Origin: a bacterium
Lineage (GTDB): Bacteria; UBA8248
Direction of reading: 5' to 3'
Length of the DNA: 64,000 nt
NCBI GenBank assembly: GCA_963692865.2
Contig: OY843592.1
Coordinates: 832,001-896,000 of the forward strand
The first letter of the stretch is position 1, and each line of letters starts with the position of its first letter. Made by a program: the position numbers and the translations under genes. A model generated the notes under the pieces. The model was not told where the DNA came from, ran no database searches, and was given only the letters and a program-made list of their open reading frames with translations. Shown one piece after another: positions 1,340-46,132 of this stretch.

Positions 1340-1905
1340 TCCATGAATCGAAGGGGCGGTTCGAGAACGGTCCCTGCAAAACCCGCAAACCCTACCAATT
1401 GCCGATATGCGCGCGGAGTAGGGACAACCCCTCCTCGGGGTTGTCCTGCCCCCGTGGTTGTCCCTTGCAGAACGCACCATCGGACAGGCACGGGGGCCTG
1501 TCCCTACAAACGAGAGAAGGTCTTGATCGTCATTCCGGCCTTGAGCCGGAATCGATTTGCGGGTGCGGGTGAATGAACGACGGCGTTTCAATTCCCGCCG
1601 ATGTGCGGGAATCCTGACGAAAGGCAAAAGACATAAAATGGATTCCGGCTCAAGGCCGGAATGACGGCAATCCTGGCAATCCAGGGTTTTCAACAGTTCC
1701 TTGAGGGTTGCCGGCAACTGATGAAGAAGGAAGAATCATTCCCCCCTTGAGGGGGTCGGGCTTCCCGAGGGGAAAGCCCGACAGAGGCCGAGCGGTTTGT
1801 GCGAAGGCCGATGTGGTGGGGGACATACCACAGGGTAAAATCTCCCCCCACCAGTTCGCTTTCGGGCTTACGCCTTCAGCTCACTGTCGGCCTTCCCGAG
1901 GAGGA
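1340..1905. repeat. Intergenic cluster of nested palindromic repeats
   Basis: GTAGGGAC-type palindromes at 1418-1446 and 1481-1506; inverted CGTCATTCCGGC...GCCGGAAT pair at 1528-1553 and 1641-1667; CCCCCCTTGAGGGGG element from 1740. Confidence 0.8.
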
Positions 1906-2023
1906 AAGATGGGGTAATCGGGTTGGTCTGCGAACTACCGCGTGTGGCGGATGTTCCTCTGCCTTATGATTCGAGGCGAGGCCGGGATGGTCCGGTCTCT
2001 ACGCGCCCGCAGGAGGAGCAGTC

Positions 2024-3064
2024 ATGAACTACTTTGCAGGACTCGACGTGTCGTTGGAGTGGACGAGTGTGTGCGTGGTGGACGCGGAGGGCGGGATCGT
2101 CCGGGAGGCGAAGGTCGCGAGCGAACCCGCGGCCCTCGTGGCGTTCTTCACCGGACTGGCCTTCGGCGTAACGCGCATCTGCCTGGAGGCGGGGCCGCTG
2201 TCACAGTGGCTCCATGACGGTCTGGCCGAGGCCGGGTTCCCGGTGGTTTGCGCCGAGACGCGGCAACTGAAGGCGGTGCTCTCGGCGACGGTGAACAAGA
2301 GCGACCGCGACGACGCGCGCGGCATCGCCCAGTTGGTTCGCGCGAACCTGATTCGCCCGGTGCACGTGAAGACGGTGTCGAGCCAGGAAAAACGCATGCT
2401 CCTCGCCAACCGCAGGTTCATGCTGAAGCAGTTGTGCGACGCCGAGGCCCACATCCGGGGCACGCTGCGCAACTTCGGGCTGAAGATGGGCAAGGTCACC
2501 CGTCGCGGTTTGGAGGCGCGTGTAGGGTGTCTGGTCGCGGAGCGCCCGGAGTTGGCGCGCCTGGTGGCGCCGATGCTGCGGGCTCGCTCTGCGCTGCTGG
2601 CGGAATACGTCCGGCTGCACAGGATGATGCTGGAGGCGGCGCGAGCCGATCCGGTCTGCCGGCGCCTGATGACGGTTCCCGGCGTGGGTCCGGTGACGGC
2701 GCTCACCTTCCGGGCGAGCGTCGACGTGCCATCGCGTTTTGCGCGCTCGCGCTCGGTGGGCGCGCACTTCGGGCTTGTGCCTCGCAAATGGCAATCCGGA
2801 GAGGTCGACCGCACGGGAAGCATCTCCAAATGCGGCGACGCGATGATGCGCGCGGCGCTCTACGAAGCCGCCAACGTCTTGCTCGGGCGCACGACGCGGT
2901 GGTCATGGCTGAAAGCCTGGGCGATGGGTGTGGCGAAGCGTCGCGGCAAGTCGCGCGCGAAGGTTGCGCTCGCCCGCCGGCTCGGCGTCATCATGCACCG
3001 CATGTGGATGGATGGCAGTGAGTTCCGCTGGAAGCGCGACGGCGCGGATGCTTCGGCTGCCTGA
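2024..3064 (+). CDS. IS110-family DEDD transposase/recombinase
   Basis: YFAGLDVS...CLEAG...KSDRDDA (RuvC-like DEDD); TVPGVGPVTA and GLVPRKWQSG...ISKCGD (catalytic Ser domain); RBS AGGAGGAG. Confidence 0.95.
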   Translation: MNYFAGLDVSLEWTSVCVVDAEGGIVREAKVASEPAALVAFFTGLAFGVTRICLEAGPLSQWLHDGLAEAGFPVVCAETRQLKAVLSATVNKSDRDDARGIAQLVRANLIRPVHVKTVSSQEKRMLLANRRFMLKQLCDAEAHIRGTLRNFGLKMGKVTRRGLEARVGCLVAERPELARLVAPMLRARSALLAEYVRLHRMMLEAARADPVCRRLMTVPGVGPVTALTFRASVDVPSRFARSRSVGAHFGLVPRKWQSGEVDRTGSISKCGDAMMRAALYEAANVLLGRTTRWSWLKAWAMGVAKRRGKSRAKVALARRLGVIMHRMWMDGSEFRWKRDGADASAA

Positions 3065-3119
3065 GGTCGAGACACTGAAGAAGGAGGACCACAGACAAAC
3101 CCTGTAGCTTCCGCCTCGG

Positions 3120-3305
3120 CGGGGGATGCTCCCGTGGGGACGAGGGACGAAGTGAGTACGCTGTCGGCCTAGCCCCGCTGCGTCGGTGACGATGCGAGGG
3201 CGCAGGAAAGATTGTTCCACTTCGTTCTCCGATCCCATCCTGTTGACGGCCCCCGGCTCGGGAGTCGATCACGAAGAGAAGCGAGACCCCCATGGAGCGT
3301 CATCT
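3120..3305 (+). ncRNA. Predicted bridge RNA / seekRNA of the IS1111-type element
   Basis: Outer stem 3125-3139/3288-3301; target loop with GTCGGCCT (3163-3170) and AGGAAAG (3204-3210); donor loop with CCCATC (3234-3239) and AGAGAAG (3275-3281); boundaries approximate. Confidence 0.7.
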
Positions 3306-3492
3306 GCAGCCAAAGGCGGAACAGGTCTGACAGAACCAGGGGAGAGGAACTTGACTTGCCCTACCCGATTAGAGAAGGCCGACCCTCAAGGGGGGAGTGA
3401 TTTCCACTCTCGTCGGAAGGCAAGAACCCTCAAGGGGGGAGTGAATTTCTTCTCTACTCGGTCGGGTTCGGCCCCCCACCCGGAGTGCGCCC

Positions 3493-36539: not shown

Positions 36540-37120
36540 GCCGCTCCGCCTCACCCTGAGTAGCGGCCCTTCGACAGGCCCAGGACAGGCTCCGCTGTCT
36601 CCCCACCTTCCTCACCCTGAGTAGCCGCCGAAGGTAAAACGCGACTGAGAAAGGAGCGTTTGTACCGAAGGGCGAAATTCGCGCTCGCCGGAGGGATGCC
36701 CCCATCCTTCGATACGGCGCTTACGCGCCTACTCAGGATGAGGGTTCGGGGCGCTTGCCCGGGATGAGGGCGTCAAGCGTTCCGCGAAGCCCGATGTCGC
36801 GCGGTGGTCGATTCCGACCGGTTTGCGCGAAGGCCGATTCGGTGGGGGGAGCTTTTTCTGTGGCATGTCCCCCCACCAACTCGCCTGCGGGCTTCGCCCT
36901 TGCCTCGTTGTCGGCCTTCCCGAGGAGGAAAGGTTTTTGTAGGGGCCGCATATCATGCGGCCCGCCTTGTGGAGGCGAAAATCAGGGTCGCATAATATGC
37001 CAGACATATATGTCTGACATACAAACAAATCGTCTCTCTCCGGCTTTTTCAACAGCCCCCTCATGGGGGGAGTGAAATTCGGCGTGTTCCTTCTGTGGAC
37101 TTTTTCAACAGCCCCGGATG
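36540..37120. repeat. Intergenic repeat cluster
   Basis: CTACTCAGG-type repeats, CCCCCCACC element, REPIN and MITE right end at 36939-37059. Confidence 0.8.
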
Positions 37121-42799: not shown

Positions 42800-43375
42800 C
42801 CGGGTGGTTGTTGAATAAGTCCCGGTAAATTAGGGTTCAACGCGACCGACGAGAACAAGAAAAACACTCCCCCCTTGAGGGGGAGTCAACGAGGCAAGGG
42901 CGTAGCCCGCAGGCGAGTTGGTGGTGGGGAGCTTTTTCAGTGGAATGTCCCCCCACCGAATCGGCCTTCGCACAATTCGCTCGGCCTCTTCGTCGGGCTT
43001 TCCCCTCGGGAAGCCCGACCCTCAACGGGTTGTTGAAAAAGCCTGTTTCACGAGCGGGCGGACACACAGGTCCGCCCCTACGCAAAACGAGATGGGGTTG
43101 TAGGGGCGGACCTGTGTGTCCGCCCGAATGGCCCGAAAGAACGAGGGCGGAGTGTAGGGGCCGCATACATGCGGCCCGTGTAGTGGGCGAAAAAAGGCCG
43201 GGACGCATATATGCGTCCCCTACACCCTCTCCTCAGAAGGACTTTTTCAACAGCCCCTCAAGGGGGGAGTTATTCTCTTCTCTCTCGTTGGCTGTCAATG
43301 CTGTACAAAGGTGAAGTCCGCAGCCACGCCAACGGTGGTCAACTCCGAGCGAGGAGGGACTTTTCAACAACCCCC
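42800..43375. repeat. Intergenic repeat cluster with a MITE nested in a CCCCCTTGAGGGGG element
   Basis: 42865-43025 is a reverse homologue of 1740-1900; GTTGTTGAAAAAG (43029) ... TTTTTCAACAGCCCC (about 43243-43257) encloses several GTAG palindromes. Confidence 0.8.
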
Positions 43376-45749: not shown

Positions 45750-46132
45750 GGAGTGTGCAAACACCACCCCTTCGGGGCTGTTGAAAAAGTTACGAATTCG
45801 AGATTCAGCACATGGAGCCGCCAAAGTAAGAAGGAGACAATACTCCCCCTGTGTAGAGCACTTAACAACCACTCCCCCCTTGAGGGTCTGGCTTCCCGAG
45901 GGGAAAGCCAGACGATGAAGCCGAGCGGTTTGTGCGAAGGCTGAATCGGTGGGGGGTGAATCGCGTTTTATTGCGTATTTCGAGTTATACCCCCCACCGG
46001 TTTGCTTGCGGGCTTGCGCCCTTAGCTCACCGACTCCCCCTCAAGGGGGGAGTGGTTCATCCCTACCCACACGGGGTTTTTCAACAACCCCCCTTCCGCC
46101 TGTTTTGATTCTTAGAGTTCCAGAATTGGTTT

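Follow-up and report, generated by a model that had tools for sequence, protein, structure and literature searches.

An IS1111-group insertion sequence with a predicted guide RNA directed at the end hairpin of a composite host repeat

How does an insertion sequence (IS) find the foot of one particular hairpin in a genome that holds many similar ones? This question is raised by a 1469-bp element in a 64,000-nucleotide (nt) stretch of bacterial DNA (contig OY843592.1, positions 832,001 to 896,000 of assembly GCA_963692865.2, GTDB lineage UBA8248), which is referred to below as the window and supplies the coordinates used unless another sequence is named. The element interrupts a hairpin and is present in its own genome in six copies that are 100% identical. 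The closest records are labelled Nitrospinota, and the sequencing runs that contain the element are labelled sponge metagenome. From the analysis described here, the element is very probably an intact, recently active member of the IS1111 group whose recombinase is guided by an RNA from the 313-nt right end. The evidence that carries this conclusion was demonstrated at the level of boundaries, copy number, family features, scaffold conservation, and co-variation of the guides with flanks and element ends.

Boundaries, copies and family assignment

The left flank of the element ends in ...GTCGGCCTTCCCGAGGAGGAAAG (1886-1908). The element itself starts with ATGGGG (ATGGGGTAATCGGG) at 1909 and ends with ...TTAGAGAAG (...CCCGATTAGAGAAG) at 3377, and the right flank continues from 3378 with GCCGAC (GCCGACCCTCAAGGGGGG). 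The boundary is ambiguous by 3 bases because AAG is common to both junctions. A view of the site without the insertion was provided by locus L060, which comes from a same-genus genome that lacks the element. There, the orthologous locus is uninterrupted and reads ...CTCACTGTCGGTCTTCCCGAGGAGGAAAG/ACCGACCCTCAAGGGGGGAGTGATTTCC... (the slash marks the junction here and below), with flanks that are 85-91% identical. This empty site joins exactly at AGGAAAG/ACCGAC, with no duplication beyond the shared crossover bases, and no terminal inverted repeats are present. In addition, a contig of X1 joins 1905 to 3375 and skips 1469 bases; the shorter side of this join is only 21 letters long, so that it hints only weakly at an uninterrupted hairpin in that sample. 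A genus-wide search found full-length copies in 6 of 23 genomes. The element's own genome contains six recombinase genes of its family, six copies of the RNA scaffold described below, and no solo copies of that RNA.

The 346-amino-acid protein encoded by the element matches Pfam families PF01548 (E = 7e-13) and PF02371 (E = 3e-21), as well as NF033542, the NCBIfam model of IS110 RNA-guided transposases (237 bits against a cut-off of 140). Alignment to the solved IS621 and ISCro4 proteins gave E values of about 1e-14 (3e-14 for IS621, mainly over the C-terminal domain). In IS621 chain 8wt6_A, the GID, IEA, TDxxD, and ESG positions, which we take to be the catalytic ones of IS621, are matched in the alignment by D8, E55, D94, D97, and S258. 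S258 is located within GLVPRKWQSG, a sequence that fits the motif GL-P----S/TG. The subterminal inverted repeats of the element match at 11 of 12 positions when one is compared with the reverse complement of the other, and both sides change together in relatives L014, L018, L019, and L033. The non-coding ends measure 115 nt on the left and 313 nt on the right, the longer one being downstream of the gene. A tblastn search of 72,556 plasmid records returned a best match of 61% protein identity, with products named only "IS110 family transposase".

The features that separate IS1111 elements were drawn from PMC11187229 and PMC11208160. As described in PMC11187229, they are subterminal inverted repeats (7-17 bp), a long non-coding end downstream of the gene, a transposase of 330-350 amino acids, and the GL-P----S/TG motif. 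A first-pass annotation of this DNA, made from its letters alone, had proposed an intact IS1111-type element whose removal restores a hairpin, and these proposals were borne out. The intact hairpin is seen directly at the orthologous empty site, the six identical copies have open frames and aligned catalytic residues, and the subterminal repeats, downstream non-coding end, protein length, and motif all fit. Based on its sequence, the assignment of the element to the IS1111 group of the IS110 family is supported, with every testable separating feature present.

Scaffold and guides of the right end

To define the architecture of the right end, the right ends of seven relatives (79-97% protein identity) were aligned by MAFFT and folded by RNAalifold. 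Besides a small hairpin, the fold contains a three-way junction enclosed by an outer stem. The first arm (3141-3231) carries an internal loop; in the second region, 3232-3243 and 3272-3287 lie on either side of an inner hairpin, and it is the outer stem that closes them. A covariance model built on that fold, R1, matched in 42 of 52 related loci, all on the strand of the gene and just downstream of it. In the R1 alignment, 90.5% of cells are paired, compared to 34-47% when the partners are slid. Compensatory, two-sided changes, the covariation that the first-pass annotation had proposed looking for in the folded right end, were detected in 39 of 52 pairs across related loci, and none of 500 shuffles reached any of these measures. 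It should be noted that the pair counts lean towards the model because the alignment was fitted to it; the independent check on the scaffold is the MAFFT-based RNAalifold fold, which has the same architecture. These results support the prediction that the right end encodes a structured bridge/seek RNA.

Four guide words had been read from two stem-enclosed loops in the first-pass annotation. All four are located where they had been placed (Table 1), and the reading of the right end as a bridge RNA with legible guides is upheld by the structural covariation and by the guides co-varying with flanks and ends across relatives. The loops fared unevenly: loop 1 is a true stem-enclosed internal loop, but loop 2 has no closing stem of its own and is closed by the outer stem of the three-way junction. 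The most variable columns of the alignments are the two strands of loop 1, while the strands of loop 2 and the element ends are conserved. The AT directly after the 3' target guide is near-invariant in the family, and the 5' donor guide reaches eight pairs with one U-G wobble. Chance was controlled for with 20000 dinucleotide shuffles of 3065-3340, scored for junction-anchored matches of 7, 7, 6, and 7 nt. All four matches occurred jointly in 0 of 20000 shuffles, and the sum of matches was reached in 10 of 20000.

Further evidence came from comparing the flank of every element with the loop of every element. For this comparison, the donor word was used to locate the right end, which succeeded in 31 of 40 loci, and each duplicated guide set was counted once. 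On the right side (22 distinct 5' guides), the mean longest word shared between AG plus right flank and the reverse complement of the guide is 7.27 nt for cognate pairs and 3.42 nt for non-cognate pairs. Words of at least 7 nt were shared by 13 of 22 cognate pairs vs 10 of 462 non-cognate pairs, and words of at least 6 nt by 18 of 22 vs 24 of 462; several non-cognate values are high because the guides are related. On the left side (11 distinct 3' guides), at least 6 nt were shared in 6 of 11 cognate pairs vs 3 of 110 non-cognate pairs.

Individual relatives illustrate the same behavior. Clear cognate cases with unrelated, non-palindromic targets are L013, L016, L018, L021, L033, and L044, and the single base by which L018 differs from L016 is changed in guide and flank alike. 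In G027, a genome from the genus-wide search, the left flank GATGCGAG stands with the guide ATGCGAG and the right flank GGCAGGAAG with the guide complement GGGCAGGAAG. Three of the four copies in G026 are inserted in (C/T)GAGAG/AGCCGACAG and the fourth in TAAGAG/AGCCGAGAG; every one of these sites fits the element's own loop. The donor side follows the element ends in the same manner: ACAGAAG is found in both guide and right end of L025, AAAGAAG likewise in L035, and in L009 and L012 the 5' donor word and the fifth base of the left end change together. Thus, the target loop tracks the flanks of each element, and the donor loop tracks the element ends. The term "reprogrammable" would here describe only the natural retargeting observed among relatives that are 90-97% identical.

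Two further observations concern these loops and ends. In the genome of a relative, about 30-75 nt upstream of the element in L009 and L010, which is retargeted to ...GAGAG/AGCCGAC, lies an uninterrupted inverted copy of the target of the sister element L008, approximately 30 nt from the new site; judged from these loci, the differently aimed relatives evidently use neighbouring parts of one repeated unit. Separately, the right end at 3364-3377 (CCCGATTAGAGAAG) resembles the left half of the target at 1895-1908 (CCCGAGGAGGAAAG) at 11 of 14 positions, a likeness that may be due to chance or may reflect the reading of donor and target.

Table 1. Positions of the element, its gene, its predicted RNA and its target in the window
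Feature	Position	Strand	Basis
IS1111-group insertion sequence, 1469 bp	1909..3377	+	six identical copies; L060 empty site
Left part of composite host repeat: outer motif CCCCCCTTGAGGG, 28-nt hairpin (1755-1782), variable middle, left half of target hairpin	1740..1908	+	blastn of restored unit against own genome; intact copies elsewhere
Left half of 29-nt target hairpin; left target AGGAAAG (1902-1908), AG crossover (1907-1908)	1886..1908	+	sequence; L060 empty site
Left subterminal inverted repeat TAATCGGGTTGG, 6 nt from end	1915..1926	+	sequence
Ribosome-binding site AGGAGG, 7 nt 5' of ATG	2011..2016	+	read from sequence
Recombinase gene, 346 amino acids, DEDD_Tnp_IS110 and Transposase_20 domains	2024..3064	+	domain searches; IS621 alignment
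Predicted bridge/seek RNA scaffold; outer stem 3125-3139 with 3288-3301	3124..3301	+	RNAalifold; model R1 matches; pair counts
Predicted target-binding arm: stem, internal loop (3161-3171 and 3202-3212), inner stem-loop	3141..3231	+	RNAalifold; loop columns most variable
5' target guide GTCGGCCT, complementary to top strand AG+GCCGAC (crossover and right target)	3163..3170	+	sequence; cognate comparison
3' target guide AGGAAAG, equal to left target and crossover, pairs with bottom strand	3204..3210	+	sequence; cognate comparison
5' donor guide; CCCATC (3234-3239) complementary to G+ATGGG of left end	3232..3239	+	changes in L009 and L012
3' donor guide AGAGAAG, equal to right end including crossover	3275..3281	+	changes in L025 and L035
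Outward TTGACT, putative -35 box of junction promoter	3351..3356	+	conserved distance to end
Right subterminal inverted repeat CCTACCCGATTA, 6 nt from end	3360..3371	+	sequence
Right target GCCGAC and outer motif CCTCAAGGGGGGAGTGA of composite repeat	3378..3400	+	sequence; copies; L060

Target repeat, atypical sites and alternative explanations

The target belongs to a composite repeat of roughly 190 bp. An outer motif bounds this repeat on both sides, inverted at the far end; between the two copies of the motif, a 28-nt hairpin (GTCGGGCTTCCCGAGGGGAAAGCCCGAC) comes first and a 29-nt hairpin last, separated by a variable middle. The unit (1740-1908 plus 3378-3400) is bounded by inverted repeats, resembles a miniature inverted-repeat transposable element, and occurs at many places in the genome; its outer motif CCCTCAAGGGGGGAGTG has 326 genomic matches with up to two mismatches. 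The 29-nt target hairpin, GTCGG[C/T]CTTCCCGAGGNGGAAAG[G/A]CCGAC, is a rare variant and forms the right-hand hairpin of the composite repeat. The common 28-nt hairpin, of a GGGC type, is found at 88 places and is occupied at none of them. Two guide positions distinguish it from the target, namely the base beside the crossover and the outermost left position. The first-pass annotation had counted hairpins at 1755-1782, 42992-43019, and 45886-45913 among the target family. These hairpins do exist, but they are of the common 28-nt type and not the 29-nt target.

The annotation had also proposed that the element is aimed at a host repeat hairpin, which is true for four of the six copies and for the left half of a fifth. 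The four copies are inserted in the 29-nt hairpin, three at AGGAAAG/GCCGAC and one at AGGAAAG/ACCGAC. A fifth copy follows the left half of the hairpin (AGGGAAG) and is itself followed by CGCCCC... (CGCCCCTACGGG), an unrelated right flank with no fit to the guide. The remaining copy is off target, at AGGGAAG/GTCGAT in AT-rich non-repeat DNA, where the site departs from the target at 3 of 13 positions, two of which would form G-T wobbles with the guide. The two copies with atypical flanks are G000:C1:3895393-3896861 and G000:C1:1823985-1825453. An origin of the hybrid-flank copy by exchange with the off-target copy was considered and rejected because the flanks of the two do not complement each other. 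In the element's own genome, no empty copy of the exact 13-mer target was found, with 11 sites at one mismatch and 201 at up to two.

Two sites without the element are also atypical. At 36910-36932 of the window, the left half of the target hairpin is present without a mismatch (...GAGGAGGAAAG), the sequence then continues with GTTTTTGTAGGGGCCGC..., and resemblance to the repeat family is lost precisely at the crossover; this site may have been left behind by a rearrangement that the element mediated, or it may be a repeat that was truncated. Nearby, 36941-36965 belongs to a second palindromic repeat family (GGGGCCGCATATCATGCGGCCC-like) that often adjoins composite units. Outside the window, at G000:C1:3606989-3607017, a target-type hairpin reads GTCGGCCTTCCCGA-TTAGAGAAG-GCCGAC, with the last 9 nt of the element in place of GGAGGAAAG. 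This resembles a scar left where a seventh copy was deleted between two CCCGA words, one belonging to the target and the other to the element's right end. The scar would also allow an element boundary shifted by 9 nt, a placement that was rejected on two grounds: TTAGAGAAG stays with the element in the off-target copy and in every relative, and the empty site of L060 has GGAGGAAAG. It is possible, if rather doubtful, that the three odd sites, i.e., the copy between a hairpin left half and foreign DNA, the empty half site, and the scar that keeps the last 9 nt, are natural footprints of RNA-guided rearrangement beyond simple insertion. If so, the odd sites and the re-aimed loops of 90-97% identical elements in one genus would show a symbiont genome being remodelled by a bridge recombinase at repeats that act as anchors, and would supply, ready for use, a natural set of guides with different targets on a single scaffold.

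Several results weigh against an active, RNA-guided element. The single-sequence fold of the right end is unremarkable (z about -1.3) and uninformative alone. No Rfam family matches the right end; the two sub-threshold matches both lie in the flanking repeat, and Rfam is therefore silent on the RNA. The RNA contigs of runs X22 and X23 cover only 2635-2904, with 6-8 differences, are from a relative, and leave the right end uncovered. Neither an RNA from the right end nor a circle junction was seen in the runs, which were examined as contigs, in which rare circles are invisible, and whose RNA contigs lie elsewhere, on the gene of a relative. Singly, each guide match was reached in 3.8-8.4% of the 20000 shuffles. 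The right end went unlocated in 9 of the 40 loci of the cognate comparison, which were dropped. The guides of L011 and of L012/L069 mismatch their own flanks, L008/L068 has one mismatch on the right side, and in G026 the 5' guide seems to be one base out of register with AG. Finally, one of the six copies occupies a non-repeat site and another has a foreign right flank.

The frequency with which single guides match by chance bears on the notion that the target-like words of the right end are not guides, being instead a captured fragment of the host hairpin or chance matches favoured by a palindromic target. Indeed, the left arm of the hairpin itself begins with the 8 nt of GTCGGCCT, and the hairpin's left half contains GTCGGCCT and AGGAAAG in the same order. 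However, the four matches never occurred jointly in the shuffles, and the scaffold is conserved while the words are swapped in relatives for matches to their own different, non-palindromic flanks (L071 in addition to the six clear cases listed above). The 5' words of those relatives are reverse complements of the right flank and not copies of the left one. The comparison of cognate and non-cognate pairs thus largely refutes this explanation, which we consider extremely improbable. Scarcely more credible is that the recombinase protein itself reads the DNA hairpin, by structure or sequence, and that the RNA only regulates transposase expression, as proposed for Ssr9/Asr9 of ISPpu9. It is true that most targets here and in close relatives are at the foot of a hairpin, and regulatory small RNAs are described for ISPpu9 in PMC12288879. 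A protein reader would nonetheless have to accommodate near-identical proteins (in elements 90-97% identical) that sit in quite different sequences, each matching its own loop, a copy in a non-hairpin site that still resembles the guides with its three differences, and 88 hairpins of similar shape that were never occupied.

A less drastic alternative is that the element is a true family member that is no longer mobile in its own genome, its copies dating from one past burst and the odd flanks from later host rearrangements. No circle junction or transcript was seen in the contig data, no perfect empty site is left in the genome, and a deletion scar and a half site are present, all of which would agree with such a history. 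The six copies, by contrast, are without one difference over 1469 bp and their frames are open, copy number varies within the genus, and rare circles cannot show in contigs. We regard a loss of mobility as improbable, although it merits more weight than either of the two explanations above, and we continue with a mobile, RNA-guided element.

Proposed mechanism and comparison with known systems

By analogy with the published mechanism of the family, from which the circle intermediate, the junction promoter, the expression and processing of the RNA, and its binding to the protein are carried over, our current hypothesis is as follows. The element would be excised as a circle joined at AG, and a promoter rebuilt at the circle junction would drive transcription, after which the right-end RNA would be processed. 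In the internal loop of the target arm, the 5' strand GUCGGCCU would pair with the top strand of AG+GCCGAC, and the 3' strand AGGAAAG with the bottom strand of the left target and AG. The second pair of strands, CCCAUC and AGAGAAG, would read the joined circle ends ...TTAGAGAAG/ATGGGG.... A recombinase tetramer with its DEDD and serine residues would bridge donor and target via both loops, and exchange at the shared AG would insert the element without duplication. The preferred site would be the 3' foot of the rare 29-nt hairpin variant that ends the ~190-bp composite host repeat.

The putative junction promoter is suggested by TTGAC: of 26 distinct right ends, 18 have it at 26-28 nt from the terminus, and it is kept even when the sequence next to it is no longer alike. 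The circle would carry TTGACT-17 nt-GAAG/AT, and the last hexamer in the integrated copy is GAAGGC; the promoter would then exist only in the excised circle. A consensus promoter scan found no site within the integrated element, and a junction promoter is invisible in the linear sequence. The concept of such a promoter is described in PMC11208160 and PMC12288879.

RNA-guided targeting by IS110/IS1111 elements, the downstream RNA of IS1111 elements, and the use of palindromes at AG by ISPpu9 and ISPpu10 are already established. A literature search combining Nitrospin- with IS110 found only unrelated work; ISfinder and the supplementary tables of PMC11208160 and PMC11187229 were outside its scope and may hold a relative. 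What is added here is a well-delimited IS1111-group element from an uncultured lineage, and the known mechanism is unchanged. Its useful features are the orthologous empty site, the six identical copies, and the close relatives with differing target loops on a near-constant scaffold and protein. This natural guide series could help to define the loop positions that set specificity in the IS1111 architecture, which has been less studied than that of IS621.

The closest resemblance is to the IS1111 elements ISEc11, ISPa11, ISKpn4, and ISPst6, for which seekRNAs are described by Siddiquee et al. 2024 (PMC11187229). According to that description, they share with the element the guide RNA in the long non-coding region downstream of the gene, a top-strand match located 5' of a bottom-strand match with overlap of the two in the target, subterminal inverted repeats, and a transposase of 330-350 amino acids with the GL-P----S/TG motif. 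In size, the target arm predicted here (~90 nt) comes close to the RNAs of 82-96 nt reported there to co-purify with the transposases. Sequence and target differ, and the likeness is drawn from described features that, in the present element, are known from sequence alone.

IS621 (Durrant et al. 2024, PMC11208160; 8wt6) is described as having target and donor loops that each read the two DNA strands about a common crossover dinucleotide, a recombinase with DEDD and serine residues, and a promoter rebuilt across the circle junction; the corresponding promoter would be found here by analogy. In contrast to the present element, the RNA of IS621 is in the left end upstream of the gene, its guide order is reversed, its crossover is CT instead of AG, and its subterminal repeats are short (2-3 bp). 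The two proteins are only distantly alike.

With respect to target choice, ISPpu9 and ISPpu10 of Pseudomonas putida (PMC12288879) are similar in that they are described as inserting in repetitive extragenic palindromes at AG and as occurring in multiple copies, and ISPpu10 has a junction promoter like the one postulated here. They differ in belonging to the IS110 group, in the description of which they have no subterminal repeats and carry the guide RNA upstream of the gene. Another IS1111-group element, judged by the title of its report, targets the terminal repeat of a separate unit that is itself repeated or mobile. The element of the window is alike in that its target is the end hairpin of a composite repeat, and different in that this host repeat is a short non-coding composite unit rather than an established transposon.

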